From: Fistulifera solaris
Taxonomy: Eukaryota
NCBI GenBank assembly: GCA_030295235.1
Contig: AP026147.1
Span: forward strand, 682,001-746,000
DNA: 64,000 nt
Reading direction: 5' to 3'
This document shows, in pieces, positions 1-60,616 of this stretch; the first letter of the stretch is position 1; the number at the start of each line of letters is the position of its first letter. A model generated the notes under the pieces. The model did no database searches, was not told where the DNA came from, and saw only the letters and a program-made list of their open reading frames with translations. The translations under genes and the position numbers were made by a program.

Positions 1-731
1 ATTCAAATTTATGAGACGAGTTGATTTTTCCGGTTTTGTGGAGGGAGAAAAGAGCGGACGTAAAACGTGCGAGGTCATTTATAAGCGCTTTACTATCAGA
101 GTTGTGTTGTTGTGAGATGTCCGTTGTAAATAAATACTATTGAGTTTTGTGTTCACCAGAGGCCCAATCTTCAGAATACGGGTTGGTCCCTTGTCGAATG
201 TTCTACTGACCGGTCATCGGTCATTCGAGTCTTGTTCCCATGTCTTGCACACAAAAGTCTATACTAGCGGCCCGAATTTAATTCTGAGTCATGAATGGCT
301 TCGCGTTCCACGTTCCGGAAACGAGAAACTTTATTACTTGTAGTGCCCAAGTTTTGCTTTGCTATGAAGCCTAAAAGCCTGTGACGACTCGTGACTCGTG
401 ACCGAGACAAAGATGATTTATTTTTGGTGAATTCAATGGTCGATGGTGCATCACTCTTAATGCATTTCATAAGACTTGTCCCTATAAGGCTGTTGGTGCG
501 CTATGTGAATATTTGTGTGACAGAACAGCCCAGTTTTCCTAGCAGGGCTCCGTAAGCTTGATGTAGACATTCCAAGTAATGCAGCATGGATTCTTTTTTC
601 AATTTGGAGTTTGAATGTTTGTCAACTATTTTCCTTTGATGCAAATACATTATGTAGTTGGAAGGTAGGATGCGGTGAGAGCCGAAAATGGGGGTGGGTC
701 GAGATAACACCATATCCGGGTTTAGTTTGCC

Positions 732-780: not shown

Positions 781-1346
781 CCTTACAAATTTCCATGTAA
801 TGAACGGTTTTATTACTTTGTGGGGTAAAAGATAGCTTAACGTTCATAAGGACTACCAGTATGCTTGTTTTTGCCCTCTAAAAGACTTGTTTAGACCCCT
901 GTGAAGAATTTTCTGGCTTCACCTTAGCTGGAAGGTACGTACGTATGGCGTACGGACGTACGGACACATTATAAAACGCTAACCTTATCATCGCACTGAG
1001 CCCATCCCACGTGCCCCTACCCTAGAGCCTACAGTACGAGGTATCTAAGTAAATTCTATTGTACTGTCTCTTTTGTACACAAAGGTGGAGCAATGCAGCT
1101 AATTGAATTTTTGTCGTTATTCAAAATGTACAAAATTTATCCGTTGCTCGCGCATCTTGCAAAACCATCAACAACAAGCAACAACGCAAAAACGATAAAA
1201 GAAAAGGGTTGTGGTCTATGAAGCTTTGCGAAACGAACCCAACCAAAAGGGAAGAGAAGGAATAGAACAGCTTCTTCTTTACGCGGGCGTGAAACAGGAT
1301 CGACGTTTGACTGAAACGAAATACGAAGCTCTCCGACTACCATAAA

Positions 1347-3507
1347 ATGCCTGACAAATATCCTGGAGGCGTCAGTGGTCCTCGTAGATCTACACCGATC
1401 AGTCCGACGGCAGATGAATCTATGGATACAGTTGCGGCAAATGCAGAAGCTGCTCGGTTAGCCCGCGAGCTCGGCGTCGTCGGGTCGACACAGCCTGTTT
1501 CTCGACCTCTCTTTAGCCGCTTTCGGCAAAACAACAATAGTTATGCATCCTCATCGAATAGCAATTACAATCAAGACAAACAAGAAGAGCCATCTTCTTA
1601 TGTTCGAATGAAAGATGATTCACAGCGCTCTCAACCATTCACTGCGTCTACAGAGTTCGATACGTCACCCAGTTATCCAGCTCATTATCCTCATATCACT
1701 ATTTGCAACAGTCAAGGAGAACCGATTCATGAATTTGACTGTCACGGACAACGCACTCCGTATAGAGAAGGACCTTACTTCTTATCGCGTGATGCAGCAG
1801 GTCGTCTTGTCAAGAAACGTTGGTGTAAGTACAGAAGTTGTGCCGATTTTTCCATCGTTCAAGCAACTGACGTGTCTATTCTTTCGCTCACGCGTGTTAG
1901 ACGGAAGACTCGAAGACGGCTATCTAGCGAGATCGTCTATTTATTTGCACGAGTACTTTGGATTCACTATCTATACGCCTCTTACTCATGAAGAGCAGGT
2001 TGAAATGAAGAAACCGAATGGAAAAATTCCTCGCTGGATGTATGAATTTACGTCACTTCCCAATTTGGCTATACCCATGTCGTATTTTTGCATCGGCGTT
2101 GCTTTGCAGTTACTCAGGACGCCTCTGATTGTCTACTTTATTGAAGATCTGAACGCAACGCCGGCCGAGGTAAATGTTCTCTTCACGGTCATGGCCGTCC
2201 CTTGGTGTTTCAAGGTCATTTATGGATTTTTGTCCGACTGCTTGCCCATCAGCGGTTTGCGTCGAAAGCCGTACTTTATGACGGGCTGGGTCGTTTTCAT
2301 CGTTTCGAATCTCATTTTGATGATCAACCCGATCCCCTCCATCCCTGTTTGTATTCTTCTGGTCTTTACACAAACCGCGGGATACATGCTCGCCGATGTG
2401 ATGACGGATGCATTGATTGTGGAACGAAGTCGCTATGAATCGCAAGAAAAACGAGGCACTATGCAATCCAAGGGATACATTGTTCGATTCTTTGGATCGA
2501 CAGTCGGGGCGACCATTGGTGCTCTGGTCTACAACAAAGATGATTGGGACTGGTCACTACCGATTCGATTGATCTTTTTCATCAATGCGGCGTTCCCTTT
2601 GATATTCCTGTTACCATTCGTGCCCTATTTGCTGGAGCTCGAAACAGACTGCTTGCCGAAAAATTTTTGGGATCAGTGTCGTGAATTGTTTCACACAGCA
2701 CAACTACGGGCCGTGTGGCAACCCATGACTTTTGTGTATGTATACAATGCCTTGCAGCTCACCAACGCTGCTTGGATGAACTTTCTTGTAGAAGGCCTCA
2801 AGTTTTCCGCCTGGCAAATCGGACTAGTTTCCATTGTTGGATCCATCATGTCGTGGTTTGGAATCATGACGTATGAGCGATTCTTTTTTGCAAGTAACTG
2901 GAGGATCGTTTACTTTTGGTGCACGACACTGGCGTCGGCGATTGCTTTGGGGCAACTCATTTTGGTGTTTGGGGTTAATCGACAGTGGGGTATTCCGGAT
3001 ATATGGTTTAGCATGGGGGACGACGTGCTGGTAGAGTTCGTTATTGCTGTGCAGTTCTTGCCAATGTGCATCATGTATCTGGGATTGTGTCCTCCAGGCT
3101 CAGAGGGAACAACTTACGCGATGCTGACCACATGGAGTAACCTCGCTGGCTCTCTGGCATTCGATATTTCGACAGCGCTTACATCTGTATGGGATGTTTC
3201 GTCCGAAACAATCGCTGCCGGTGATTACAGTGGAATATGGAAGTTGTCATTATTTTGTGGGCTGATTGGTCCGGTGCCTCTCGCACTGCTAGGTTTGATT
3301 CCCAAGAATAAGGAGGATCAGCGAAAATTGCAAGAAGACGGCACGAGACACTATTTCAAAGGTGCACTGTTTATTGCATTAATGATTTTGACGCTCGTAA
3401 TAACGTTTGCCGAGTCCATCTACGAAGTGGCCTTACATGAACAAGATCGCGAAGAAATGAGCGAAGAGCGCCGACGCAAATTGAGTAGGATGATGGTTGG
3501 GCACTAG
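1347..3507 (+). CDS. BT1-family folate/biopterin transporter (MFS), 2 exons
   Basis: ORF 1347 joins ORF 1615 through a GT-AG intron at 1825-1900 (gtaagt...gtgttag), giving ...KKRW-Y-GRLEDGY. BT1-type motifs PWCFKVIYGFLSDCLPISGLRRKPY, ADVMTDALIVE and CPPGSEGTTYAML; many TM helices. Confidence 0.9.
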
Positions 3508-3721
3508 AACGATCCGGTTGTCCACTTGTCGGGCATCTTTCACCCAAAAGTTTGAACAGTTTCAATATCTGCAGCACTAGAATAGATATTGCGTGTATGT
3601 AACTTCGTTTGTTTACTGTTGTTCTTAGCTAAAGGAGTTTTGGAGCAATAGCGCGTGTTTTTCGAAAGTGCAGATATCTAAGTATGTACATGTAATGCTT
3701 TGTAGAGCGTCCGAAGACGGC

Positions 3722-4906
3722 CTAATACACTTGGATAAGGATGTGTGACATGCACGAGTACACGCCAGCATTTTTTCCAGTACTCTTGACCGAAGAGGTA
3801 TTTAATCGGTGAGCTTCATTTTTGCGGTTTTGGTCCACGACAGGAGTGACGCTGATTTGACACGCGATGTCTTTTGCTAGACAGAGCCGTCCATTCAGAT
3901 ACTTCTTTTCTGAGTGAGATGCCATGTCCGAAGCCGCAGTATCAGTGCAAATATCCGATGGGACCGGTACCTGGATGATGGTTTCAACTGGCCTTCCAAT
4001 GATCAAATCTTTTGATTGCATACAGGAGAGTTCGAGAAAGGCTTTGTTAGCGTACACGACGCAAAGGGTGGTGTCGACTGCGTAACGACACGAGCTTCGT
4101 CCGAGATCGAGACGGCTTCTTCAATATCAACCGCGTTTTCCATCGAAATTCCTGTTGGAGGGAGAAGTCCAAGCGATTGAGTCATCGGGTTCGAGATGAC
4201 TTTCCAGAGGAACTGGTCGCCTAAGTCTGTCTCCTTTTGTTGCTTCATTGATGGTGCGCTCCACACAAGAGCTTGTGCCATCCACTGCCCCTCGCAGAAT
4301 ATGGATCTCGGAAGGTTCAACAACGTATTGGTTCCTCCCTTTTGTTGGGATTGAATCGCTTTTTGCCTTGATCTCCACACGTCAGCCGGGAGGAGCTCAC
4401 AATGCGAGACATCGATTGCTGGATGTTTCGGACTTTTCCTTGCCTTCAAACTATACTTTGGAGAGAGTGGGAACGATCTGTGGCTCAAAAGCGTTCGCCC
4501 GAAGTCCCAAGTTCCAGAGAACACTTCGAGCCTCTTTCATGAGGTCCGAAGAAGGAAAGCATGTTTTCTTTGCGGCCTTCATGGCGGTTGACGCCGTGTA
4601 CTTGTCTTCGCGTACTAGAACTTCAGAGAGTCGAGTCAAGATCGTTTGCTTTGAATTCAAAAACTCAAAACACGATTCGAGACCTTCATCTTCTTCGCAG
4701 ATACGATCGGACGTAATGTGACGTTCCTCCAAAGCAAGTCCACTGCATATGAAGAAGTCATCGTCAGAAACATCGGAGCTGCCATCGAGCGATGAAACAC
4801 CGCTGTCACAGCTAGAAGGACTTTGTTCGGAATAAACAACGCGCCTTTCTTTGTAGGACCGCTCGTCCGGAATTATGCTGAGTTTACGTTTTAGCAGTTG
4901 TTCCAT
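3722..4906 (-). CDS. PAS-like domain protein (several frameshifts, probably assembly errors)
   Basis: Segments in ORFs 4451-4906, 4003-4524 and 3722-4057. Adding one T to the homopolymer near 4065 gives EEAVSISDEARVVTQSTPPFCVVYANKAFLELSC...IIGRPVETI, a PAS N-terminal signature (F-x-V-V-x-A-N-x-A-F...G-R/K). Confidence 0.65.
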
Positions 4907-5336
4907 GATTTCGGATGATTATGATGATTCGAGAGCTTGGCGATAGCAATGATTACGTAAAAGAAAATCGTTTGTTGGAAATGATTGTTTGTTTGTAGTT
5001 TGTGAACTGATCCATCAATCCGCCGTAAGATCTGCCCGAACGACTATTTTCAAAGAATGGTTTGTTGTTGATGTCAAGCTATGGGTCTAGTCTACTCAAA
5101 GCATCCACACGAAAAAGGCGAACTGCAGTGCCAAAACATGCCTTGTCAGACAAGCACAAAATTACGTACGTCGAAAATCTGCGGCTCAGCCAATCATAAT
5201 CGAGATAGGAATGATGTCATTGGTGTGTTTTGGAAAGTGATCAGTTCAGAACTTGAGCTGAAACATGAAAGGTTACAGCGCATGTGAATTGAGAATCGGG
5301 TACAATTTGGATGATACATATGGATTCTTTTCAGGG

Positions 5337-5403
5337 CACGTCATTTTCTGCCAGCTGATGCCAGCTGAATTATCTGTTCTGATTGGTTGACGAAATGACG
5401 TCA
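5337..5403. promoter_or_regulatory. Candidate bidirectional promoter motifs: ACGT-core bZIP sites, E-boxes, CCAAT
   Basis: CACGTCA at 5337-5343, two CAGCTG at about 5352 and 5362, ATTGG at about 5382 and the palindrome TGACGTCA at 5396-5403, all between two divergent genes. Confidence 0.4.
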
Positions 5404-5626
5404 AGGGTTCGGTGGAGGAGCCGCTTCATCATCCCTCTTCTAAATGACCTTATAGTGTGCTGTGGCTATGAACCAAACAGCAGTACCAGGTACCAGTAAT
5501 GTGAACTGCGAAGTGCTTGTCCGCAGCGCTCTCGTTGCTTCAGTCACTGATTCACTTGGCGACCACTCAACGAGTCCAAGTCCACAATGAACGCAACCAT
5601 TTTCAATAGAATACGATTATCATAAC

Positions 5627-8257
5627 ATGCCTGCAAATGAAACAGACGATGCCGTGGAGACAGCTAACAACGATGGGTTGATGAACGATGCCGAAGCGGA
5701 GAACAAGGAAGTAGCCTCCACCGATTCGACGCAAAGTAGCGATGGCAAAGGTAGCGGAGGCTACAGTGCTGATTACTCACAATCTGAGGAGGACCAGTCG
5801 TCTGACGATACCGGATCGAAAGAAAAGACTTTGGAAGCATCGACATCTGTCGCCGGTCTGCGGATATCCGATAGAAAAGTAGACAGCGAACGAGGAGATA
5901 AACAAGATAACACATCCTCGGATTCACTCAGTTCTCTCGAGAATTCGAAAAAGCACAGGTCTTCGAGACAGCGCAAACGAACGCTGGGACACCTAACAAA
6001 ACACAAAAACGATGCGATAGAGACAGATAACACTTTTGCAGAATTTTTGAAGTCACTGGTCGGTCAAGGCTTTCTCCCTCAATTAAATGGCATGCTAGCC
6101 ACATCTTCCTCCCATCCAATGGACCCTCGTATCGATCTTTCGCATGTTCAATACGTCCCAGAAGCTGAAATAGGAGCGCATCAGAATGCGGCTAGTGCGA
6201 ATTTTCCAGTACTGACAGAGGAGAACTATTTGCAGCTGATGGATGTAAGTCACGTGAAATGAATATGAATGTCCATCATCGGAAACCAACTCAACCATTC
6301 TGTGTTACAGTCGGTACGGCCGTTTTTCAGAGTTCCAGGTGTTCCTCTGTCAGAGCCCATATTAAAAAAAAGAACAAAAAGAACAAAAAGAAAACGAAGG
6401 ATCATCTTCAGATCCTGTTTCCTCGGAAGGCTTCACATCCTTTTTACAACAACTCACACCGGAAGCAGTAATGATAACACAACTCATTCGGCTGATTCTT
6501 CGGACTCGAACAAAATACATCCGGATCCCAAAGACAAAGATAATACACATGTTTCTGAGCAAATAAAACAAAAGCGAAAAGAGGAAGGTGGAGGCGATTC
6601 CTCGGGGTCTTCGCAGAAGCGTGTAAGAATAATAGAGACAGCTAGAAGTCCTAAAGCCTCTCGTGATGACGCAGGTAACGGCGCCGAGCCCAGCGATCCA
6701 GAGCAAATCATAGAGAGAGCGAGATATTTGGCGGCTAGAGCAAACGATTCTACTACGAGCTCCTCGTCCAACAGTGAAGGGAACAGACAGGTGCCACACA
6801 CGTTGTCCAGATTAGTTACTGATATTTCATCGTCCAATCGCACAGATAGTGCCGCTGGAACTTCGGAGTCGGCGGGAAATACGGGAAGTGCGAGCAATCA
6901 AGGCAGTTCCGGTAGCGGTGCGGACGGAAAGGGTAGCAGTGAGGAGGGTAAGGGAAGTAGTGAGGATAATGGAAAGAGTAGGGGTGATGACGCCGGCGGG
7001 TCGGATGAAACCCCGTTTGGGGAGAAGCCGTATAATTCTACGTTAAAAGCTAAGATTGAATCGGGACATAATCAAAGATACAGTCACCACAAGGTGACGA
7101 ATTGAGAGAGAAGCTGATTCATAAGAAGCGAAAGCGCATAGAAATGCGACGCGAATATGAAGCTCAGCAGCACTTCGAGTCGTCGGAAAGCAGTGGCTAC
7201 AACTCAGAATCGTTGTTTCGGCCTGGAAAGCATATTCAAATGGATCAGGTGCTTCAAGTTAGCAATATACCCAGGTGAGTTTTTCACTTTGTGGAAAAAA
7301 ATTATATCGTCATTGAACGACTCACTCATCTTGCGTTCGGCCGCTAGACTTGTGATTCAGGCTTTGTCTCCATTCTTGGTCGTTCATGCAAATGCCGCAT
7401 ATTCACGACTTACGGGCCTTGAAGCGCACGAAGTTGTTGGGAAATCAGTAAACTTCCTATTGGCGTTACCGGAGTCCGCATCCGACGAACTTGAGCGAAA
7501 TGCTCAAGTGGATCGTGAACGACAGAGTCCTCAAAGCACGCCAGTAGAACAAGGCGAACACGCTGAATCTGCTTACGCCGGGCTATCAACAAGTGAAATG
7601 CAGCCTAAAGATTCCAGTCGCTTCGAAACTCTTGAACGATTGATTGTTTCGTGTGGATTTGGCCACATCCAATTTATCAACGCTCTAGCCGTTAACAAGC
7701 ACCAAATGGTTGGCCGCAATGTGTCCTTCTTGAGCCAATCCGTTGATGATGCAAAAGAAAATCAGTCTGAAAAAGACGAGGACAGCAAGTCTGCGAACGT
7801 GTCAAGAAATGATGTGGTCGATAAACAAATCATTCGTTGCCGAACGGCGATTGCTCCCATTGTTTCCAGTCAGGTACCTGCAGAAAGCAGCGTACCAACC
7901 GACCATGATACAAAACGACGAAAGCAACAGCACAGCGGAACCTCTGAGAATGTGAGCAACAAAACGAGCATTCTGAAAGACCCACCAGGTCAACATAGAC
8001 GTCATCATCAGCCGCAAGTCATCACTCATTATATCATTCAGCTGGAACGACTAGCCGCCGGCGGAGTAAAACAGTTGAGTGTCGACGATTCCATTTCATC
8101 CAACTCTACTTCGGTAGAAGCGCGTCTGGTTGGTTTAAGTAAAGCTGCTCATCTGCAACAAAAGGCCGCTGTTGGTCATCCTGAAGTGTTGTTGGGCGAC
8201 GACGAAGCTTCTGGGTCGACTACGAATCAGGAGGAAGCAGTGATTGCTGTCGCTTAA
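5627..8257 (+). CDS. PAS-like domain protein with a basic/coiled segment, 3 exons, frameshifted
   Basis: Introns 6245-6310 and 7275-7347 (GT-AG). Basic helix ELREKLIHKKRKRIEMRREYE, then PRLVIQALSPFLVVHANAAYSRLTGLEAHEVVGKSVNFL (PAS-like). Ser-rich low-complexity N-terminal half. Confidence 0.7.
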
Positions 8258-8626
8258 AATATTCCGTATTCTTTATCAAACTGGAAGTGTGTACAACATG
8301 CAATTCATGGTTAAATGAAGTGAGCTTCAATGATAACGGATCTCTAGAATAGTGTGCAAAGCATTATAACCGCACTGCGTTCCAACAAGTTACGGGACTG
8401 ATTTAGTGTTTGAGTCTTTTTGACGGTTTACGCTGTGTACTCTTTTGAGATAGTCGCTCACCAACGTCTGATAGTCTGTCCCGCTCAAATAAATTGGCCA
8501 TTCATCTTATTTCTTCTGATATTTGCGAGAAACACGTTCATTTTCGTTTTGATCGAAAGCTTCCACCATGAAAGAAGGAACGACGCATCGATAACCGAAG
8601 CTGCCTTTTCCTTCCTTGCGTTCGTC

Positions 8627-14234
<5,608 letters not shown>

Positions 14235-15935: not shown

Positions 15936-17071
15936 GTACATTCTTTCAGGACATTATGGAATTGGAGGTGGGATCGGTTGCAAAGGGATTGGAAAGCGCT
16001 TGGGTGGAGCATTTTTCGACCCGATTGGGATTCCCTATGGAACGTGCTTCGTTCAACGTTCTTGTCACAGTTAACCGCACAAGCCAACCTCCCTACAACA
16101 TCTTCTTCACGCAACACCATTTTACCACCTCCGGATCAAGATGGCTCGGTTCGTATGACATGGATCGGTCACGCGACTTGCTTTTTGCAGCATTCCGATT
16201 TCACCGTCTTGACGGATCCTATCTTTGGTCGCCGCGCTTCGCCCTATCCCAATACACCCATTGGCTTTGCCAGGGAAGTACCTCCGGCTTGTTCGATTGA
16301 AGATCTAGGACAAAGTATTGATGTTTGTATGATATCGCATGATCATTACGATCACCTGGATTTGGAGTCGGTACGGAAGTTAAAGTCGGTCGTACAATTG
16401 TGGTTTGTACCTTTGGGTATTGCCGAATGGCTTCAGCAGCATGCCCAAATTCCGGAGGAGCGTATTATCGAGGTGAAATGGTGGGACAGCGTACGACTGG
16501 AAAAGGATAGTTTGGCACAGACTTGGAAAGTCGCTCAACGTTATTCATTGGAAGACGCTCCGTATCATCATCCTTCGTTGGATCGTCTCGCGAGCCCACA
16601 TGAAGCGTGGCTGACTTGTTTGCCCGCACAACATTGGAGTAGTCGTTCCTTTTTGATCGCAATTACCGATTGTGGTCTTCCATGGCCTGTCACTTTCCCT
16701 CCGAACAACTATTTTATTTCGGTGGAGACACGGCCCGCCCCGATTCCTTCCCGCTCTTTGAACAGATTCGTGATTATTTGGCCCGACCCATTGATCTGGC
16801 GGCACTTCCCATTGGAGCCTACGCACCGGCTGAATTATGCCGCGATGCGCACATGCATCCCCATGAAGCAGTGCAAGTGCATGAAGCATTACGAGCACAA
16901 CGCAGTGTGGGGATACACTGGGGGAGTTTCCCGTTGGCAGAAGAGCCATTGCATGAACCCGCGGATCTGTTACACGAATGTGGGGTGGCACAATTTGACA
17001 CAGTGGAACACGGTGCGGCTGTGATTATTCCAGTGCGAGGGAATGTTTCGGACATTGCTATTAGTGCTTGA
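15912..17071 (+). CDS. NAPE-PLD-like metallo-beta-lactamase fold hydrolase (one frameshift near 16650)
   Basis: TWIGHAT, VLTDPIF, ISHDHYDHLD and PAQHWSSR, then in the next frame YFGGDT, ALPIGAY and GIHWGSFPL. Start codon uncertain. Confidence 0.85.
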
Positions 17072-17669
17072 CTTGGAGGTCGAACTGTTCATTTCTCCTC
17101 TAGTGCATTGTAGAGAACGTTTTGAAAGGAAGAATAGACTAAAAGATAAACTTATACATCTATATAAGCCCATTCCATGATGATGAGACTTTCTCTTGTA
17201 ATCGACTTCTCGCGACACCTAGCCTTTGCGTGCGTGGCTTTAGAAAAGGGGAGAGTACCAGGTAATGGCACTTGTTTTAGAAGATCTGCCAATGAGTATG
17301 GAAATCACTCAAATAGCTTTAAATGCTCAATTAGTGCTTTGTTATGGATGGTGATTGAAATGCAATGGTGACTAAACGTCGTCCGCAGCTGTAATACGTA
17401 ATACTTAATACTTGTACAAGAGTACTGTACTTGTAATAGCGGCTCGGACGGAAATTTAATTCACGACTGAAATGCAGTCGTGGCAAATGTCGTCCACATT
17501 CTGAACCATAGCCAATTTTAAAATAAATCTTGAACAAATATTAATCCAGTATCAACCGGATTTGCAGCAACGTCGACTGTATTCTCATCATTCTCGTGCA
17601 TGCAGGTTCTAGAGCAGTGGTAAAACTTAAATTTGACCGATAAGGCAACAAAGATGAACGATGCAACGC

Positions 17670-19613
17670 TTTGAAATTTGGAAACAGAACGTTGATGGAA
17701 CGATTGATGCGACGCTTCTAATTTCTACGTATTTTCGCGTAGCTCTCGTAAGGAAATTTATCGACAGAAGGAAACCCGGATATTGCGTTTTTCGCCTTCA
17801 CCTATTTCTTGTATCCACAGGACACAGATGTCAACGTTTCTTTGCTCGCCGTATTCGAATCGTATTAAAAAGCAATAAAAGCCATCAATTTGGAAACATA
17901 ACGTTGATGGAACGAATGATGCAACGCTTCGAATGTCTACGTTATTTAACGTAGCTCTCGTAGGGAAATTTATCGACAGAGGGGAAACCCGGGCAACACA
18001 ATTTATAAGCCTTGATTCGTCCGTTTGAACAAAAGTGACTGTCAGCTTAACAACAACGTAGCAACCTCTTATTGATAATTAGATATCGATATCAACTTGA
18101 CTCAGAGCGATAAAATGAGGAAGATGCGTCGCATTGAAAGTCAACGTGTGTTTCACGTAGGCCTCGTAGGATTTTTTATCAATGTAGGTAACTGACTACA
18201 GTTTTCGCTATAGTACAATGCTGCGAACCTCGAAATAAAACGATGCGATGCTTTTTATTTTCGTTCTCGTCGTTGTCATCTTCACTTATTCATAGTCTAA
18301 TGATCTTGATGATAATGATTTAATCGTTTGATTTATTTGCATTTCGTTTCTACCTTGCTCTAGTCATCAATCCCGTTTTCGTCGGAGACGCAAATTGGCG
18401 ATCGAAAACTGGTCTCGAAAACGGAAACGGCTGAAAAGAAACGGCGCTCCGCACGACTTAACTCGACAATCAACCTGTCGCATCCTTCTTTCTTCTCACA
18501 AATCGCACCTTGTGTCAAATCACACACAAGATGCGATTTGTCACTCACAGAGCAGTGAATCTTTTCACTCGCTCACCTTGTTTCTATTTTGCGTATTGCA
18601 GTCAGATAATATAATGATCTTCGTCCGCAGGGAAGCCTCATACTGACGGGTAGTGCACGGGCCCTGCGGAGTAGCTTCCTGCCACAATGGGAGCAAGAGA
18701 AATCGCGTGTGCCTTGAGCCTCCGTCCTTCTCTTGCTCTGGAGAGAGGCCGAGTGATGTGCTGAGCCCTGAGGCCTTCACCGCTCCTCGCCTCAAATTCT
18801 CTGTTTCAAGGAATGAGTGTATGTGCTGTGCCTCGGGGCCTTCACCGCTCCTCGCCTTGATTCTCTTTTTCAAAGCGCCATGGCAAAGACCATGGACAAA
18901 GTGCGGCCTGAGGGTAACTTCAGTGTTGGTACCAGCGTATGCGTGGCAGGTTGCGAAGTAAGAGGAGAGAAGCTTACTCGACACCCAAAGATGGTGTCGT
19001 GCGGGAGGAAAAAGCCTCCAAGCAGAAATCCACGGTGACGACCTGGTATGCAATCACTCCGTAAAGTTGCCATGGAAATTCCACGACAGAGGAGGATGGC
19101 ACCAACGGCGACGGCCTCAAAAGAGGACTGATACGACCGATTGCGATGACCATACCTATCCCGGTGGCGTCCCCCAGATTCGTGGCCGACCCCCGCTAAA
19201 GGAGGGCCGACTGAAAACCAGCTGGAAGAGGTTAGCTCCATAGTAAGGCAGCATGGTAGAAATTCCACCCGAAGGATGACCCCGGCGACAAAAGTCGACT
19301 GAGAAGGCATACCTTGAGGTGGCGGCCCCGTGTTAGGGCAAAGTCCCAGCATCGAGAAGGCTCGCTCTACCCGACCCCAAAGGGGGAGTTGTTTGATTGC
19401 ATAAGCATACGCGTCCCCCGTCCGACAAAGGGCGGCGCCCAAAAGAGGTGAAAAATGGATCACAAAGTGTAAGCTCTCTTCCACACAGTCTCGGTCAAAG
19501 GACTGAGACTGCACCAGCAAAAAGCTGGCCTATAAGATCAATCTGACGCAAAAGTAAAATACAATAAAGAAAATAATATGATTAGAAACAAGCAACACAT
19601 AAGAAAACCGCTT
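17670..19613. mobile_element. Dispersed non-coding element, copy 1 (AT-rich flank plus ~1 kb structured GC-rich core at 18577-19592)
   Basis: Near-identical to 26355-28268, and from about 18335 to 32955-34239. All copies end at AACCGCTT. ORFs are not conserved between copies (indels). Confidence 0.75.
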
Positions 19614-19624
19614 ATATTTAGTAG

Positions 19625-20325
19625 ATCTCACAGAAATTCTGTTGTAGTCAAGAAATTGTGGACCAGTTTTTCGATGTCATCGAAATGCTGTGCGCGTTCC
19701 AAACAAACTGATAACGGTGGTCGGGATCATAACATGAAAAAGTGCGCGTTTCAACAATTCTTGAAACTACGTTTTGGATCCTAACGAAAGAAATCGCAAA
19801 TTCCAGAAATTATGGAATAAGTTTTTTCAGGATACAGAAATTCTGTGTTGGTCCAGAAATTCTGGACCAGTTTTTTTTCGATTTCACCGAAATGCTTTGC
19901 GCGTTCCAAACAAACTGATGAGCGTGTTTGGCATTAGAACGTGAGAAAGTGCGCGTTTCAACAATTCTTGAAACTGTGTTTTGGATCATATAGAAAGAAA
20001 GGCGAATTCCAGAAATTATGGAATAGGGTTTCCTAGTAATACAGAAATTCTGTGTTGGTCCAGAAATTTTGGACCAGTTTTTTCGATTTCACCGAATTGT
20101 TGTGCGCGTTCCAAACAAACTGATTAGCGTGTATGGCATCAGAACGTGAGAACGTGTGATTTCCAACAATTCTTGAAACTGTGTTTTGGATCCTGACGAA
20201 AGAAAGTGCAAATTCCAGAAATTCTGGAATAGGTTTTCCTGATCATACAGAAATTCTGTGGTGATGCAAATTCCAGAAATAAATTCTGGACCAGTTTTTC
20301 GATCTCTCCAAAATACAGAGTTTCT
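19625..20325 (+). repeat. ~206-bp satellite with the quasi-palindromic CCAGAAATTCTGG motif
   Basis: gcgttccaaacaaactgat at 19694, 19901 and 20106. Confidence 0.9.
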
Positions 20326-20395
20326 GGGGACAAATAAAACACAACAGGCGCAATTTTTCTGCTGGATAGTCGAAAGTGTAGGATCATTTTATCTA

Positions 20396-20900
20396 CGAAT
20401 TTACTATGGGCCAAAGTGATAGTTTAAGGAGACCTCCACTGCATTATTTCAGTCATGAGTCATGAACCAATATTGTGTCAATCGACAATGCTGCCTACAA
20501 TTTACTCGCTTAGCTTTATTAATAAGCTCCACTTGTTGATGTTGCAGTGTAAAATGTTTTAGCATCATTTGCAATACATGTCAGTATAATTTACATGGAA
20601 CAGCCTTGCCAAACGTTGTATTCCGAATTTACTATGGGCCAAAGTGATAGTTTAAGGAGACCTCGACTGCATTTCAGTCATGAACCAATATTGTGTCAAT
20701 CGACAATGCTGCCTACAATTTACTCGCTTAGCTTTATGAATAAGCTCCACTTGTCGATGTTGTAGTGAAAAATGTTTTAGCATCATTTGCAATACATGTC
20801 AGTATAATTTACATGGAACAGCCTTGCCAAACGTGGTATTACGAATTTACTATGGGCCAAAGTGATAGTTTAAGGAGACCTCGACTGCATTTCAGTCATG
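20396..20900 (+). repeat. ~220-bp tandem repeat, about 2.3 units
   Basis: cgaatttactatgggccaaagtgatagtttaaggagacctc at 20396, 20624 and 20842. Confidence 0.9.
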
Positions 20901-21063
20901 AGCGAGACAACGTGTGCCTCTATGCGTCCTAGGCCGCGTTTTTCACCATGGCGCCATTTTCAACGCCCCCCGCCGTTTGTTATTCTTATTGCTTTGCAAT
21001 TTGACAAGACAGGCGACGTAGCAGTAAATACAGAAAAAAGAAGAAAAAGAGTTTATATCAAAC

Positions 21064-25729: not shown

Positions 25730-26205
25730 TTCAGAAATTCTGGAATCTGTGTTTATGAATAAAGAGGTCATTCAGAAATTCTGGAAACTGTGTTTTGGAT
25801 CATAAAAGGTTAGAAAGTGCGAATTCCAGAAAATCTGGAAAAGTTACTCGTGTTAATCATTTCATACAGAAATTCTGTGGTGGTCCAGAAATTCTGGACC
25901 AGTATTTTCGATCTCACCGAAATGCTGTGCGCGTTCAAAACAAACTGATTACGATGTAATGGATCCTAACGAGATACAATGCGCGTTTGAGAAGTTCTGG
26001 AATCTGTGTTTTGGATCATAAAAGGTTAGAAAGTGCAATTCCAGAAAATCTGGAAAAGTTACTCGTGTTAATCATTTCGTACAGAAATTCTGTGGTGGTT
26101 ATACAGAAATTCTGAGGTGGTCCAGAAAGTCTGCACCAGTTTGTTCTTTCTCAACGAAATGCTTTGCGCGTTCCAAACAAACTGATTTGGGTGTTTGGGA
26201 TCATG
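25730..26205 (+). repeat. CCAGAAATTCTGG satellite, about 2 units
   Basis: cataaaaggttagaaagtgc at 25801 and about 26017; same family as 19625-20325. Confidence 0.85.
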
Positions 26206-26224
26206 AGGTGAGGGTAGCGAAAAA

Positions 26225-28268
26225 TATCGACAGAGGTAAACCCGGATATTGCGTTTTTCGCCTTCACCTATTTCTTGTATCCACAGGACACAGATGTCAA
26301 CGTTTCTTTGCTCGCCGTATTTGAATCGTATTAAAAAAGCAATAACAGCAATCAATTTGGAAACAGAACGTTGATGGAACGATTGATGCGACGCTTCTAA
26401 TTTCTACGTATTTTCGCGTAGCTCTCGTAAGGAAATTTATCGACAGAGGGAAACCCGGATATTGCGTTTTTCGCCTTCACCTATTTCTTGTATCCACAGG
26501 ACACAGATGTCAACGTTTCTTTGCTCGCCGTATTCGAATCGTATTAAAAAGCAATAAAAGCCATCAATTTGGAAACATAACGTTGATGGAACGAATGATG
26601 CAACGCTTCGAATGTCTACGTTATTTAACGTAGCTCTCGTAGGGAAATTTATCGACAGAGGGGAAACCCGGGCAACACAATTTATAAGCCTTGATTCGTC
26701 CGTTTGAACAAAAGTGACTGTCAGCTTAACAACAACGTAGCAACCTCTTATTGATAATTAGATATCGATATCAACTTGACTCAGAGCGATAAAATGAGGA
26801 AGATGCGTCGCATTGAAAGTCAACGTGTGTTTCACGTAGGCCTCGTAGGATTTTTATCAATGTAGGTAACTGACTACAGTTTTCGCTATAGTACAATGCT
26901 GCGAACCTCGAAATAAAACGATGCGATGCTTTTTATTTTCGTTCTCGTCGTTGTCATCTTCGCTTATTCATAGTCTAATGATCTTGATGATAATGATTTA
27001 ATCGTTTGATTTATTTGCATTTCGTTTCTACCTTGCTCTAGTCATCAATCCCGTTTTCGTCGGAGACGCAAATTGGCGATCGAAAACTGCTGAAAAGAAA
27101 CGGCGCTCCGCACGACTTACTTGACAATCAACCTGTCGCATGCACCCTTCTTTCTTCTCACAAATCGCACCTTGTGTCAAATCACACACAAGATGCGATT
27201 TGTCACTCACAGAGCAGTGAATCTTTTCACTCGCTCACCTTGTTTCTATTTTGCGTATTGCAGTCAGATAATATAATGATCTTCGTCCGCAGGGAAGCCT
27301 CATACTGACGGGTAGTGCACGGGCCCTGCGGAGTAGCTTCCTGCCACAATGGGAGCAAGAGAAATCGCGTGTGCCTTGAGCCTCCGTCCTTCTCTTGCTC
27401 TGGAGAGAGGCCGAGTGATGTGCTGAGCCCTGAGGCCTTCACCGCTCCTCGCCTCAAATTCTCTGTTTCAAGGAATGAGTGTATGTGCTGTGCCTCGGGG
27501 CCTTCACCGCTCCTCGCCTTGATTCTCTTTTTCAAAGCGCCATGGCAAAGACCATGGACAAAGTGCGGCCTGAGGGTAACTTCAGTGTTGGTACCAGCGT
27601 ATGCGTGGCAGGTTGCGAAGTAAGAGGAGAGAAGCTTACTCGACACCCAAAGATGGTGTCGTGCGGGAGGAAAAGCCTCCAAGCAGAAATCCACGGTGAC
27701 GACCTGGTATGCAATCACTCCGTAAAGTTGCCATGGAAATTCCACGACAGAGGAGGATGGCACCAACGGCGACGGCCTCAAAGAGGACCGATACGACCGA
27801 TTGCGATGACCATACCTATCCCGGTGGCGTCCCCCAGATTGGCGGCCGACCCCCGCCAAAGGAGGGCCGGCTGAAAACCAGCTGGAAGAGGTTAGCTCCA
27901 TAGTAAGGCAACATGGTAGAAATTCCACCCGAAGGATGACCCCGGCGACAAAAGTCGACTGAGAAGGCATACCTTGAGGTGGCGGCCCCGTGTTAGGGCA
28001 AAGTCCCAGCATCGAGAAGGCTCGCTCTACCCGACCCCAAAGGGGGTTGTTTGATTGCATAAGCATACGCGTCCCCCGTCCGACAAAGGGCGGCGCCCAA
28101 AAGAGGTGAAAAATGGATCACAAAGTGTAAGCTCTCTTCCACACAGTCTCGGTCAAAGGACTGAGACTGCGCCAGCAAAAAGCTGGCCTATAAGATCAAT
28201 CTGACGCAAAAGAAAACGTAAAAATAAAAAATAAACTAGAAACAAACAACACAAAAGAAGAACCGCTT
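26225..28268. mobile_element. Dispersed non-coding element, copy 2 (with a 213-bp tandem repeat in the left flank)
   Basis: atcgacagagg at 26226, 26439 and 26651. The core starting at 27239 is near-identical to the core starting at 18577. Confidence 0.75.
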
Positions 28269-28329
28269 CTAGTTAGTTGTACTACGTAGTTGTAATAGCA
28301 GCAGTAATATGATATATGAATGCTTTTCG

Positions 28330-31379: not shown

Positions 31380-32095
31380 GTCTGTTTTTGACTCAAATAA
31401 CTGGTCCAGAATTTCTGGCTGACACAAAACCACGGATTCCAGATTTTCTTGAATTTGCACAAACTGGCTGTAATTCTCGAAACACTAGTTCCCGTATAGA
31501 AGGAAAGTCCACAGCATTTCTGTATGACCCAAAACACCGATTCCAGAATATCTGGAACGTGCACGAAACGTCTGGTTTGACTCGAAACAACTGGTCCAGA
31601 ATTTCTGGACCAGTCACACAGAATTTCTGGACCAGTCACACAGAATTTCTGGCTGACACAAAACCACGGACTCCAGATTTTCTGGAATATGCACTCACTG
31701 GCTGTAATTCTCAAAATACTAGTTCTCGGATATCCCGAATCTCCACAGCATTTCTGTTTTTCGCAAAACACCGACATCAGAATATCTGGAACCTGTACGA
31801 AACGTATGTTTTGACTCCAAACAACTTTCTGGAACAGTCACACAGAATTTCTGGCTGATACAAAACAACGGATTCCAGATTTTCTGGAATATGCACTCAC
31901 TGGCTGTAATTCTCAAAACACTAATTTCCGACTATCAGGAACGTTCCCAGCAATTCTGTTTCTCACAAAGCACCGATTTCAGAATATCTGGAGCGTGCAC
32001 GAAACGTCTGTTTTTGACTCGAAACAACTGGTCCAGAATTTCTGGACCAGTCACACAGAATTTCTGGCTGACACAAAACCACCGATTCCAGAAGC
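31380..32095 (-). repeat. CCAGAAATTCTGG satellite in reverse orientation
   Basis: Recurring ctggtccagaatttctggaccagtcacacagaatttctgg and ggattccagattttct with a ~203-233 bp period. Confidence 0.85.
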
Positions 32096-32654: not shown

Positions 32655-34239
32655 TCGACATCAACTAACTTGACTCAAGACGAAGAAATGAGGAAAGATG
32701 CAAGGCAGCGAAAGTCTACGACGAATGCACGTAGGCCTCGTAGGAATTTTATCGATGTAAGTACGAGACTACAGACGAGACTACAGATTTCGTTATAGTC
32801 AGTAAGGTTACTTGTAGTCAGTAGCAACACCTCACACCTCGCGATGAGGCCTTCGATCGATCGTTCGTCGTCTGCTGTCGTCTCGTTATTGTCGCCTTTA
32901 TTTTTTGCACTTCTCATTCATAATGATCTTGATGAATAATAATTAACTTCTCATGTTTGATTTGTATTTCGTTTCTACCTTGCTCTAGTCATCAATCCCG
33001 TTTTCGTCGGAGACGCAAATTGGCGATCGAAAACTGGTCTCGAAAACGGAAACGGCTGAAAAGAAACGGCGCTCCGCACGACTTAACTCGACAATCAACC
33101 TGTCGCATCCTTCTTTCTTCTCACAAATCGCACCTTGTGTCAAATCACATACGAAGTGCGATTTGTCACTCACAGAGCAGTGAATCTTTTCACTCGCTCA
33201 CCTTGTTTCTATTTTGCGTATTGCAGTCAGATAATATAATGATCTTCGTCCGCAGGGAAGCCTCATACTGACGGGTAGTGCACGGGCCCTGCGGAGTAGC
33301 TTCCTGCCACATTGGGAGCAACGAGAAATCGCGTGTGCCTTGAGCCTCCGTCCTTCTCTTGCTCTGGAGAGAGGCCGAGTGATGTGCTGAGCCCTGAGGC
33401 CTTCACCGCTCCTCGCCTCAAATTCTCTGTTTCAAGGAATGAGTGTATGTGCTGTGCCTTGGGGCCTTCACCGCTCCTCGCCTTGATTCTCTTTTCAAAG
33501 CGCCATGGCAAAGACCATGGGCAAAGTGCGGCCTGAGGGTAACTTCAGTGTTGGTACCAGCGTATGCGTGGCAGGTTGCGTAGTAAGAGGAGAGAAGCTT
33601 ACTCGACACCCAAAGATGGTGTCGTGCGGGAGGAAAAAGCCTCCCAGCAGAAATCCACGGTGACGACCTGGTATGTAATCACTCCGTAAAGTTGCCATGG
33701 AAATTCCACGACAGAGGAGGATGGCACCAACGGCGACGGCCTCAAAAGAGGACTGATACGACCGATTGCGATGACCATACCTATCCCGGTGGCGTCCCCC
33801 AGATTCGTGGCCGACCCCCGCTAAAGGAGGGCCGACTGAAAACCAGCTGGAAGAGGTTAGCTCCATAGTAAGGCAGCATGGTAGAAATTCCACCCGAAGG
33901 ATGACCCCGGCGACAAAAGTCGACTGAGAAGGCATACCTTGAGGTGGCGGCCCCGTGTTAGGGTAAAGTCCCAGCATCGAGAAGGCTCGCTCTACCCGAC
34001 CCCAAAGGGGGGTTGTTTGATTGCATAAGCATACGCGTCCCCCGTCCGACAAAGGGCGGCGCCCAAAAGAGGTGAAAAATGGATCACAAAGTGTAAGCTC
34101 TCTTCCACACAGTCTCGGTCAAAGGACTGAGACTGCGCCAGCAAAAAGCTGGCCTATAAGATCAATCTGACGCAAAAGTAAAAGTACAATAAAGAAAATA
34201 ATATTATTAGAAACGAGCAACACAAAAGAAGAACCGCTT
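32655..34239. mobile_element. Dispersed non-coding element, copy 3 (diverged left flank, conserved core from 33202)
   Basis: 32955-34239 is near-identical to 18335-19613. 32655-32950 is only loosely similar to 18085-18330. Confidence 0.75.
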
Positions 34240-40129: not shown

Positions 40130-40890
40130 AAAAGCGAAGTATTCTGGAATTTGCACGTTCTTGCGTTATCATCCAAAATATGCTTTCCACGATATCTGAA
40201 AGGTGCACTGTTTTTCGTTACGATTTGAAACACCCTGCCCAGAAGTTCTGGAGCGTCAACAGCATCTTTGTAAGATCGAAAAATATGGTCCAGAATTTCT
40301 GGACCAAGACAGATTTTCTGTATGATTGACCTAATTTTTCCAGAATTTCTGGAATTTGCACGTTCTTGCGTTATCATCCAAAACATGGTTTTATAGTTTC
40401 TGGAAGGCGCACTGTCTTTCGTTACGATTCGAGACACCATGCCCAGAAGTTCTGAAGCGTGAACAGCATTTTTGTAAGATCGAAAAAGTGGTCCAGAAAT
40501 TCTGGACTAGGACAGATTTTCTGTATGATTGACTTAACATTTCCAGAATTTCTGGAATTTCCACGTTGTTTCGATATCATCCAAAATATGCTTTCCACGA
40601 TATCTGGAAGGTGCACTGTTTTTCGCTACGATTTGAAACACCCTGCCCAGAAGTACTGGAGCGTGAACAGCATCTTAGAAAGATTGAAAAAGTGGTCCAG
40701 AATTTCTGGCCACCACAGATTTTCTGTATGATTGACCTAATTTTTCCAGAATATTTTTCGTACTACGTAGTCTATAATCATTCACGCACCTTGGTTTCCA
40801 TAATTTCTGGAAGGCGCACTGTTTTTCGTTACATCGAAACACCCTGCCCAGAAGTTTTGGAGCGTCAACAGCATTTTAGAAAGATCGAAT
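40130..40890 (-). repeat. 204-bp CCAGAAATTCTGG-family satellite, about 3.7 units
   Basis: gcactgt.tttcg at 40205, 40409, 40613 and 40816. Confidence 0.9.
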
Positions 40891-46084: not shown

Positions 46085-47015
46085 CAAATTCCTGGACCAG
46101 TCACACAGAATTCCAGTTGGGCACAGAATCATTTACTCCGCATTCCAGAATTTCTGGAATAGGCATGAAATTGCCGTTCTACACAAAAACAATACGGAGT
46201 AATTCTAAAATTTCTAATACGTGATATTAATCTCTGTCGGATCCAAAACACCGATTTCAGACTGATTTCAGATTATCTGGAACGTGCAAGACATGGCTGT
46301 GTGACTTGAAACGACAAGTCCAGAATTTCTGGACCAGTCACACAGAAGTTCTGTCTGACACAGAACCACTTAGTCCGGATTCCAGAATTTCTGGAATGTC
46401 CACGAAATGGACGTTATACTCAAAACCAATAATTCTAGAATTTGTAATACGTTAACCTAATCTCGGACGGACGCAAAGCATCGATTTCAGATTATCTGGA
46501 ACGTGCAAGACATGGCTGTGTGACTTGAAACGACAAGTCTAGAATTTCTGGACCAGTCACACAGAATTTCTGTCTGACACAGAACCAATTACTCCGGATT
46601 CCAGAATTTCTGGAATGTGCACGGAATGGCCGTTATACTTGTACTCAAAACCAATAACTCTTGAATTTGTAATACGTTAACCTAGGTCTATTCTCTGTGG
46701 GATCCAAAGCATCGATTTCAGATTATCTGGAACGTGCAAGACATGGTTGTGTGACTGGAAACGACAAGTCCAATTTCTGGACCAGACACACAGAATTGAT
46801 TGACAAAATCTCTGCGTCACCCAAACTAGGTCTAACGATTCCAGAATTTTTGGAATGTGATCAAAATCTTTTGTGCGACGCAAAACATCGATTCCAAAAT
46901 TTCTGGATCTTCCAGACTTTCTGAATTTCTGGAACTTTTCGTAAAGACCGATATCCGAATTTTGGAAGGCACGCAAAATTTCTATGTGACGCGAAGCACC
47001 GATTTCCTCCAGATT
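46085..47015 (-). repeat. CCAGAAATTCTGG-family satellite with ~219-231 bp units
   Basis: ggaacgtgcaagacatgg at 46279, 46498 and 46729. Confidence 0.88.
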
Positions 47016-47050: not shown

Positions 47051-48405
47051 GCTTGACGGAAATTACTCACTCCGAGCGGTTCCGATTATCTACGGTTTCG
47101 ATGTCGTATCGATTCCTAAATATCTATGAACGAAACTTGGTTTCAACGATAAATATTATCTTTAGCAACCGAAACGGTATGTTCGCTCATAACGCAAAAC
47201 AAGTAATGTGTTTTTTGCCAGAGAGAAAAATTCTCTCTGAAGTGAGAAAATTTCTCTCTTTAGAGAGATTTTCTCTCGATTTCTCTCTTAGAGAGAAATT
47301 TTCTCCCTTAAAAGAGATATTTCTCCCTATTTCTCTCTTTAGAGAAAGTTCTCTCTGTAGAGAGATATTTTTTCTATGCTTTCGTTCACTTCTTTGTGTA
47401 ATTAAGGTTAAAAATCGACGATGAAGAGACCTCAACACACAACGAACAACCGTTATCGCACAAAACAACCAACGCAAAAACAAAAAGACGGTGCAGCGAG
47501 ACAAGCATTTCTAATTACTAAAATGTAATTTGTCCCCGATAGCTAGTCATCAATTGACCTCGTCAACAGGAACAATGGGGCTTAGCTTTGGAAAGACGAA
47601 TGGCGCGTGTGCAGGCCGAGTGCCATTTTTGGCTCGGCGTCGTGCTGTTTGGTGCGTTCCATTTTCAATTTCCCTTTTGTTTTTACTGTGAAAACATATT
47701 TGATCCGCGGCTCATTGGACACAGTTTGTCTTTTCCATGCTGACTGAAGAGTCTGGCAAATTTCCGCGGTCTGGGGCTGCTTCGTTTTCCCGGGCTTGTT
47801 GAGTTTCCAGCACGCCACGGCCGCATCTCAGATCATTCAGAGATTTCCCTCTTAATCCTTTGGTCTCTCATTCTTGCCATTAATCAAAAGCGTTAGATAA
47901 TAGGTTTTGAGTTGATATGAATTACTCTTTTGAAAAGAAACCTCTTTCGATACTTGTCAAGCAGAAAAGTAATGCACCGACGCGAACGACGCCCGACGCC
48001 CACATTGTACAGTACAAGTACATAAAATTCGTTCAACAGAGGAAAACTCTAAACAGAAATCGTCTTACTCCATAATGAAAATTTCTCTCTGAAGTGAGAA
48101 AATTTTTCTCTTAGAGAGAGATTTTCTCTCGATTTCTCCCTTAGAGAGAAATTTTCTCCCTTAAAGAGAAATTTTCTCCCTATTTCTCTCTACAGAGAGA
48201 ATTTCTCTCTATAGAGAGAAAATTTCTCTCTATAATGACAAAAAATTACTTAGAGACAAACGGCATTTAAGCTCATAGCATAAAACGTGTATCGGAATTT
48301 GTCGCGAAATGTTGTACAATTGAGTAGAGTACAAATGTTTCCGTTGAAATAATTACTATATAAGCGTAAACTGTATAGTATGTTACGGAGAGACTTCCGA
48401 CAAGC
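47051..48405. mobile_element. Foldback/MITE-like element with two TCTCTCT-x-AGAGAGA palindrome arrays
   Basis: Imperfect inverted ends gcttgacggaaattactcactccg (47051) and cggagagacttccgacaagc (48386-48405). The arrays at 47220-47375 and 48077-48232 are similar copies. Confidence 0.55.
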
Positions 48406-48662
48406 ACCCTGTGGTGTCTTAACGTGCCATGATAAACTACCGGTACCGGTAGGGGGCGTGTGGTGCCTTCACTTACCCAGAAAATCTGACTGATTGGTGC
48501 TTGTCACCTACCCCGAAAAATCTGGGTAAGTTGTTTTTCGGGCATTCATCGCTGTCGTCAGTCGGCCGTTACTGGTACAATAAAACGAGTGAAAGGAATA
48601 AACGACAATGAACAAGACCTTTTCCGAAGAGACAGCTTTAGATTACGTTCTTTCATGTTCGC

Positions 48663-60144: not shown

Positions 60145-60616
60145 GATTAGACAGAGTGCTTTATTGAATATTCGTTTATAGGATTATATTTTGTTATCGT
60201 TGTGTTGCAACATAAAATAATGCTTTTACCTACTGACGCCTTCCCACTCGCGATCGACTCATCCATGCGGGACTGCTATCCACTTGAAGTCAAACTATAA
60301 CACTCTACCTGATACTCCGTAGTTATTCAACAGCTAACGCCATCTCAACGTTACCAAGACTAAGATGATCAAATAAGCACCAACGGCATTTTTTCTATCT
60401 TTCAATTCAATTATTCCATTGCTTATCTCTTGTGATGTTGATTGAAGATGAATGCTTGTACAATGGACTTTAAGACCCTAAATACCTGAGCCGACGTTGC
60501 CACCCCGAAAGTCTCTACTGTTGACACATGCGACCCTATGATCTAGGGTTAGTTGTTGTTTAGTTGATTCTGCTTGTGCTCATTTTCTATCTAAGCTTGC
60601 TTCAGTTATGCCATAA

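Follow-up and report, generated by a model that had tools for sequence, protein, structure and literature searches.

A homogenised, strongly folding repeat in a diatom nuclear locus as a candidate family of non-coding RNA genes

Unclassified repeats abound in diatom genomes, and only a few of their non-coding RNAs have been characterised; a hairpin-dense sequence near position 18577 of a 64-kb stretch of Fistulifera solaris DNA (GenBank contig AP026147.1, positions 682,001–746,000; the whole stretch is called the window, and all positions refer to it) raises the question of whether it is an RNA gene, a mobile element, or a repeat without function. A sequence-only reading of the locus had proposed an undescribed structured, multicopy RNA that is being amplified, either as a retrozyme- or viroid-like RNA or as a multicopy non-coding RNA gene. 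The last of these options remains the best one. We place first, though at less than even confidence, a small clustered family of ~1.2-kb non-coding RNA genes homogenised by gene conversion; it is ranked first on the grounds of contigs from RNA libraries, relatives in other assemblies, and a pattern of duplication and homogenisation. According to this proposal, each unit would have been duplicated long ago together with an upstream repeat and spacer. The GC-rich block at 18345–19551 would since have been kept 99% alike by gene conversion, possibly aided by selection, while the rest drifted. The block would be transcribed into a non-coding RNA of ~1.2 kb that folds stably, with paired ends and many short hairpins. 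From the evidence described below we infer the gene conversion, the RNA as the functional product, and the length and ends of that RNA.

A blastn search with positions 17001–21000 against the window, combined with a three-way alignment, located three direct copies of the element, at 18298–19613 (copy 1), 26976–28277 (copy 2), and 32921–34239 (copy 3). All are given on the plus strand, which here means the orientation with the A-rich tail and does not imply the strand of any RNA. The three near-identical copies reported earlier are therefore real, and the sites noted at 27239 and 33202 correspond to 18577 in the other copies. The element had been delimited as ~1 kb at 18577–19592; the repeat stood, but the unit common to all three copies proved to be larger (18298–19613, ~1.3 kb). 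Copies 1 and 3 are 97.65% identical over 1321 columns. Leftward homology between copies 1 and 2 continues from 26976 to 26354, the equivalent of 17675, and these two copies form one 1.95-kb segmental duplicate (17675–19622 and 26354–28277, 97.2% identical over 1953 columns). On the right, all three pairs of copies cease to be similar at one sharp point, beyond which copies 2 and 3 are followed by unique DNA.

The unit is conserved unevenly. A block of 1,207 nt (18345–19551, no strand assigned; 54.6% G+C in 18600–19545) is 98.7–99.5% identical in all three pairs, and its variation is confined to 19 substitution sites, a few 1–2-nt indels, one 19-nt deletion, which is in copy 2, and one 4-nt insertion. 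The AT-rich patch to its left (18298–18344) is only 73% identical between copy 3 and copies 1 and 2, in agreement with the earlier observation that the core is better conserved than its AT-rich left flank. The A-rich tail to its right (19552–19613, plus strand, with AATAAA at 19563–19568) shows 80–90% identity among the copies, and its hypervariable A-rich part is followed by a conserved 30–35 nt. Beyond the unit, identity falls to 47–51%, as for random flanks. Each copy lies 85–120 nt behind an older "junction" repeat of ~190 bp, which was found by blastn at 18028–18214 (plus strand), 26707–26893, and 32667–32799 and is in the same orientation each time. The first and last of these are 73% identical, and the junction repeat and spacer of copy 3 are still alignable at about 65–73%. 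The block has thus been homogenised among the paralogues while its surroundings diverged, with 73–90% identity at the edges and ~50% beyond. Since neutral copies of the same age would decay evenly, the uneven divergence within the unit points to homogenisation, and gene conversion between nearby paralogues would most likely be what keeps the block alike. The uneven divergence, the common context upstream, the uniform orientation, and the grouping of all three copies within 16 kb favour an old duplication of the unit followed by homogenisation of the block. The notion that the element is being amplified fared less well: copies 1 and 2 make up a single segmental duplicate, and every copy is preceded by the same older repeat in the same orientation, an arrangement that fits duplication with homogenisation at least as well as transposition.

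Parts of the element are present in 20 public sequencing runs from 12 studies. Four runs were compared as assembled contigs: a DNA run (X2), a DNA-like run (X3), and two metatranscriptomes (X5 and X9), from different studies. X2 and X3 cover the entire region, with a depth of 10–30 in contigs of the unique flank, 118–144 in core contigs, and 1162–11140 in the neighbouring tandem arrays; set against a core depth of 112–340 in these two runs, the satellites are 10–100 times deeper. The RNA contigs of X5 span 18438–19339 with a core depth of 3.5–7.8 and a satellite depth of 0.6–1.9; those of X9 span 18687–19174 with a depth of 4–10.7, and the satellites are at 0. The ratio of core to satellite in RNA is therefore the opposite of that in DNA, which makes carry-over of DNA unlikely and suggests that the core block is transcribed. 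Neither X5 nor X9 yielded an RNA contig in 19340–19613, a contig gap that by itself proves nothing. Breaks of the X5 contigs at 18576 were considered as RNA ends or splice sites and rejected, as they fit a 30-nt overlap between copy-variant contigs. The depth of the core relative to that of the unique flank corresponds to ~5–13 copies per genome, a rough figure given that contig depth is a poor measure.

The block might instead be a decayed or mis-assembled protein gene on the minus strand, as copy 2 alone has an open frame of 296 codons there (27227–28117) and gene callers have called open reading frames (ORFs) on its relatives. The 1–2-nt indels at 18696, 18866, 19009, 19119, and 19386–7, however, shift the frames between copies, confirming the earlier statement that no ORF survives across them, and the indel variants are present too in contigs from independent short-read runs, which speaks against mis-assembly. 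The frames also differ among the relatives. The long open frames are explained by composition: the minus strand is poor in A (0.19) and carries 19–20 stops in its three frames, compared with 33–39 on the plus strand. A Pfam search at E <= 1 of 14 ORFs from copy 1 and the pseudo-proteins P0001, P0003, and P0008 found no family in any of the 17, apart from two chance matches below the cut-off. We regard the gene explanation as scarcely credible. A 52-codon ORF on the plus strand (18880–19038), whose ATG lies in a strong context (GCGCCATGG) inside a CCATGG hairpin, is open in all three copies, with a frame shift near its end in copy 2 and several ATGs upstream; it is probably due to chance.

The ORFs called on the minus strand did allow relatives to be found. 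A full HMMER scan of 1.84 billion protein representatives gave seven relatives, all of them ORFs of 63–204 aa and none with a domain; a word-index search also yielded called ORFs on relatives, and no further relative was obtained when P0002 was used in that search. P0002 and P0004 stem from this organism or from one very close to it, and P0004 (on a Joint Genome Institute (JGI) contig) matches copy 2 and its right flank at 91.5% pseudo-protein identity. P0003, P0005, P0006, and P0008 are diverged: frameshift-aware alignment gave 141 identities among 185 aligned residues with 10 frame events for P0003, 133 of 190 with 13 for P0008, 55 of 89 with 4 for P0005, and 64 of 82 with 3 for P0006. Relatives align only with 3–14 frame events per 80–190 residues, indicating that conservation in the family lies at the level of nucleotides rather than protein. 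P0002–P0008, which stand in public databases as "hypothetical proteins", are thus spurious translations of the stop-poor minus strand of the element, made by gene callers. The diverged relatives sit on contigs of 1146, 1194 (two contigs), 66398, and 1193 nt, the 66-kb one being an NCBI/JGI contig; three relatives have contigs of 1146, 1193, and 1194 nt, which are about as long as the block. Other searches added nothing. With P0001, the pseudo-protein of copy 2, one pattern match in viral contigs and 58 in metagenome contigs were obtained and none was confirmed, although the tblastn check of the latter may have failed because of frame shifts; with P0006, none of 214 pattern matches in prokaryote genome contigs was confirmed. 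Four loci from an exact 21-mer scan of metagenome contigs (L001–L004) have only a 21–22-mer in common with the element and were rejected as chance.

Would an RNA from this block be structured? The minimum free energy (MFE) of 18577–19592 is −391.7 kcal/mol on the plus strand, compared with −326.8 ± 6.5 for shuffled sequences (z −9.9), and −380.5 kcal/mol on the minus strand, compared with −338.6 ± 8.3 (z −5.0; 40 dinucleotide shuffles per strand), so that the check proposed earlier did reveal excess stability. Complementary CT-rich and GA-rich segments can also give a strongly negative z over a whole sequence when no selection acts. The local excess is modest: sixteen 150-nt segments have a mean z of −1.70 (plus) and −1.45 (minus), against a background of −0.17 and −0.14 (sd 1.1–1.2) in 65 segments. 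The strongest folding occurs in 18448–18597 (z −7.0 and −4.5), 18748–18897, 18898–19122, and 19423–19572. The strongest local hairpin (18498–18541, no strand assigned) has 18-nt arms that are 94% complementary and an 8-nt loop; copy 3 carries four changes in its right arm, and pairing is retained only when it is read on the plus strand. An internal tandem duplication of a 65-nt unit (1.9 copies, 85% matches, no strand assigned) occupies 18751–18873.

The ends of the element pair as had been claimed. The left arm of an imperfect inverted repeat (18577–18621, with the blocks CTTGTTTCTA, TTTTGCGT, GTCAGAT, and TGATCTT) is invariant in the three copies, and the right arm (19527–19592) is interrupted by the hypervariable A-rich patch at 19552–19582; neither arm has a strand assigned. 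The predicted duplex of the two arms has an energy of −30.4 kcal/mol, compared with −12.6 ± 2.9 for 1000 shuffles (z −6.1), a value that none of the shuffles and none of 303 control segments reached; copies 2 and 3 retain the duplex (−29.7 and −30.5 kcal/mol). Between the arms, the stretch at 18870–19545 (no strand assigned) contains short hairpins with loops that are A-rich on the plus strand and U-rich on the minus strand (for example at 18878, 18979, 19004, 19115, 19286, 19418, 19486, and 19514). The hairpins listed in the sequence-only reading are present. The loop motif is one-sided: AAAG occurs 16 times on the plus strand and CTTT once, where 4.6 are expected. On both strands the MFE fold is multibranched, with many local hairpins and long-range pairing only at the ends, and is not rod-like.

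Several observations weigh against a family of RNA genes, the first of which concern the conservation of this predicted structure. Base changes in the relatives were inferred by nearest codon from their translations; codons beside frame events were dropped, and P0007, with four changes, was excluded. Across four relatives, 144 pair-cells of the hairpins predicted on both strands could be compared; 21 of them were changed, and a further 6 were ambiguous. Only one of the 21 is compensatory (G-C to A-T at 18883–18890 in P0008), while 6 keep pairing on the plus strand only, 6 on the minus strand only, and 8 are broken. There was no excess of compensatory changes, six controls with slid partners being equal or better, in a test whose protein-inferred bases are a weak proxy of low power. 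AAAG positions change more than others (17/84 compared with 142/1311), and only 9 of the 18 fully covered AAAG sites are unchanged in the relatives. Of the paired sites that vary among the three copies, 6 of 9 still pair in the plus fold and 6 of 13 in the minus fold, which settles neither structure nor strand. By this low-power proxy, then, there is no evidence of selection on the hairpins or loops. The earlier proposal of an undescribed structured, multicopy RNA is supported as far as a multicopy, non-coding sequence with excess folding and RNA contigs is concerned, but an outcome that it had itself named as refuting, a lack of covariation, was observed as far as this proxy reaches. Furthermore, functionless repeats can be homogenised by gene conversion too, and the RNA support comes from environmental contigs only, which give no strand, ends, or level. 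A more far-reaching version of the proposal, in which the element is the gene of a lineage-specific, highly folded ~1.2-kb non-coding RNA of raphid pennate diatoms, with several homogenised copies and sufficient abundance to assemble from environmental metatranscriptomes, and represents a hitherto unknown class of large structured RNAs whose hairpin loops are one-sided, A-rich or U-rich, seems to us unlikely. Under this version, the 1146–1194-nt contigs of the relatives would even allow such an RNA, or its copy in DNA form, to occur as a separate molecule of that length.

Three further points count against RNA genes and at the same time for an unclassified non-autonomous mobile element: the copies have one sharp right end with unique DNA beyond, the inverted repeats are significant, and the setting is rich in abundant tandem repeats. 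Such an element would be either a DNA transposon of the terminal inverted repeat (TIR) or foldback type, with imperfect inverted repeats of 45–66 nt, or a retroposed RNA whose 3' tail is A-rich. It would have inserted preferentially beside the satellite or junction repeat, the RNA contigs would reflect transposon transcription, and in the retroposed form copies 1 and 2 would carry a transduced upstream flank. This explanation, which we rank close behind that of RNA genes and likewise hold at less than even confidence, is in keeping with the 97–99% identity of the copies, the conserved 15-nt terminus with which copy 3 opens at 32921, the A-rich plus-strand end with AATAAA, the relatives on 1146–1194-nt contigs, as expected for collapsed repeats, and the hairpins and loops that bear no sign of selection.

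The boundaries of the unit give a mixed picture of mobility. The inverted repeats, though significant, are not its termini, because the unit runs 279 nt further to the left and 21 nt further to the right. An A-rich tail and a common right end are present, as in a retroposon of the SINE type, with the conserved 30–35 nt following the tail. No matching flank words indicative of a target-site duplication were seen at either candidate boundary of the three copies when the flanks were read by eye; as the left flank is common to copies 1 and 2, there are only two independent left junctions. Neither did reading the copy ends reveal TG..CA ends with a 4–6 bp duplication. Terminal direct repeats in the manner of long terminal repeats (LTRs) were not found, the longest internal direct repeat (37 nt) lying within the 65-nt duplication, and the element accordingly lacks the hallmarks of TRIM, LARD, and solo-LTR sequences. 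ARAGORN detected no tRNA gene and Rfam no match to tRNA, 7SL, or 5S RNA, so that there is no RNA polymerase III head; runs of T4–5 are seen on either strand. Pfam revealed no coding partner within the window, and none is among the seven matches in the 1.84 billion protein representatives. The low copy number, with three copies in the same orientation in 16 kb, and the uneven divergence within the unit also argue against transposition, as does the flank of copy 3, whose homology to the flank of copy 1 extends as far as the element itself, so that transposition would need site-specific insertion. TIR/foldback elements of the kind of miniature inverted-repeat transposable elements (MITEs) resemble the unit in the lack of an ORF, inverted repeats near both ends, a strong fold, and a repeat-rich intergenic site, but here the inverted repeats are imperfect and non-terminal, no target duplication was seen, 1.3 kb and few copies are atypical, and a transposase partner is missing. 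The copies were also considered as the two LTRs of one retroelement, which was ruled out since host genes for beta-adaptin and a DHHC protein, and no gag-pol, lie between copies 1 and 2.

A family of RNA genes has also to be weighed against a functionless low-copy repeat in a satellite-associated segmental duplication, perhaps derived from the untranslated region of a retrotransposon or from a ribosomal DNA (rDNA) spacer, whose GC-rich middle undergoes conversion and whose transcription is incidental. The 1.95-kb segmental duplicate formed by copies 1 and 2 agrees with this view, as do the structure and loops that are not conserved in the relatives and the strong z-scores that CT- and GA-rich complementary segments can give without selection. 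So do the flanks, which are dispersed 205–218-bp tandem arrays of very high depth. One array lies to the left of copy 1 (17675–17992, ~212-bp units, depth 1162–11140 in X3) and another directly to its right (19630–20260, 3.1 copies of a 207-bp unit, depth up to 5097 in X3), neither with an assigned strand. On the other hand, relatives exist in other assemblies, one of them on the 66-kb contig of another organism, and they are still alignable, which is unlikely for neutral intergenic DNA; in two RNA libraries, moreover, the core is better represented than the satellites. As for an rDNA spacer, Rfam found no rRNA gene in the window, and a core at ~5–13 times the unique flank is low for rDNA. We consider a functionless repeat rather improbable. 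Satellite arrays can arise from non-coding regions of retrotransposons, as outlined in PMC7004042, and the joining of a unique non-coding segment to genome-abundant ~200-bp arrays is reminiscent of the cases outlined there; in the window, by contrast, there is no LTR retrotransposon gene or LTR, and the link is positional only.

The remaining proposal was that the element is a genomic copy of a self-cleaving, circularising RNA, as in retrozymes or viroids. Its size of ~1 kb, lack of coding capacity, stable fold with paired ends, presence in RNA libraries, and the near-constant length of the contigs of its relatives (1146–1194 nt) would suit such an RNA. Nevertheless, the models of the hammerhead, HDV-like, twister, hatchet, pistol, hairpin, and VS ribozymes gave no match either at gathering score or at E <= 10, LTR-type direct repeats are absent, and the fold is branched and lacks the rod-like or quasi-rod shape of viroid-like or Obelisk-like RNAs, so that the retrozyme and viroid forms fail in their defining features. 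In addition, the copies are fixed chromosomal loci among host genes, and the locus of copy 2 recurs with its right flank in the JGI contig (91.5%). We therefore regard this proposal as close to refuted. Retrozymes are non-autonomous LTR retroelements with hammerhead ribozymes that give RNAs of 600–1000 nt, as outlined in PMC5680766; compared with that outline, the element is of similar size, non-coding, apparently transcribed, and structured, but has neither a hammerhead or other ribozyme nor LTRs.

More generally, no known family accounts for the element. None of 4227 Rfam families matched the 64-kb window at gathering score, and a search of 18200–19700 at E <= 10 gave six chance-level matches (13–19 bits against cut-offs of 38–104), none to a ribozyme. 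The earlier failure to recognise a known RNA family, tRNA head, or LTR is thus supported by the Rfam, ARAGORN, repeat, and Pfam scans. A full-text literature search, judged at the level of abstracts, met no description of such an element. Telomerase RNA was considered on account of a lone minus-strand CCCTAAC, noticed only by eye, and rejected, as a 6–7-mer is expected by chance in 2 kb.

5S rRNA and small nuclear RNA (snRNA) gene clusters are multicopy RNA gene families under concerted evolution, and they share with the element nearby copies in the same orientation, a bounded block of ~99% identity, diverging spacers, lack of coding capacity, and, to judge from the RNA contigs, probably transcription. 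The element differs from them in its length of ~1.2 kb, the absence of an Rfam match, of a recognised promoter or terminator, and of a conserved structure, and its ~5–13 copies. CsrB/RsmZ and the Xist A-repeat are multi-hairpin RNAs that titrate proteins; as an analogy of working, they too have many hairpins with one loop motif on one strand (here, AAAG 16 times against CTTT once), but the loop motif of the element is not conserved in the relatives and no binding protein is known for it. Overall, the element forms an undescribed family, though one of a familiar general kind, and nothing in it hints at a new mechanism. If it is truly a family of RNA genes, an ecologically important group would gain a non-coding RNA that is conserved, present in several copies, and traceable in environmental samples, together with a clear case of concerted evolution outside rRNA loci; as a mobile element, it would represent a further non-autonomous family tied to satellite arrays. 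In both cases the unit is well bounded, and repeat annotation would label it "unknown".

The window is nuclear eukaryotic DNA. A Pfam search of 29 ORFs identified genes for a BT1 transporter, the largest subunit of RNA polymerase, beta-adaptin, a DHHC palmitoyltransferase, myosin, cysteinyl-tRNA synthetase (CysRS), and kinases. The beta-adaptin ORF is 92–95% identical to proteins labelled as from raphid pennate or other diatoms (Seminavis, Nitzschia, Epithemia, and Mayamaea), an identity that supports a raphid pennate diatom as the host.

The junction repeat has a fourth copy, reversed and without the element, at 40101–39914. It comes after tandem arrays and retains several blocks in all four copies, for example TTGACTCA, GGAAAGATGC, TCGTAGGA, and CTACAG. 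Regarding a role of the junction repeat as a promoter, no clear gene follows the copy at 40101–39914 on that strand. The 205–218-bp arrays flank the units and are dispersed over many intergenic regions (17675–17992, 19630–20260, 20394–20901, 25771–26671, 31390–32093, 40142–40729, and 46087–46650). Given a summed contig depth of 1162–11140, compared with 10–30 for unique DNA, they constitute an abundant euchromatic satellite family, and their units contain palindromes such as CCAGAAATTCTGG. Inverted matches of 23–37 nt with 78–91% complementarity connect 17447–17483 with 20661–20697 and 20879–20901. Part of the 218-bp unit thus brackets the complex of arrays and element at copy 1 and could mark a larger composite unit.

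Tandem palindromic units of 20–50 nt, of the form AGAGAGAAATTTCTCTCT, occur at 47220–47370 and 48077–48247, just upstream of the CysRS gene (48642–50312), and form the densest perfect hairpins in the window (24–26 per 500 nt, compared with a mean of 3.8). The sequence GAAATTTC would fit GAAnnTTC, the half-site spacing of heat-shock elements. Finally, a 300-nt direct repeat (family D10) is present at 59396–61093 as two copies that lie 1398 nt apart and are 77% identical.

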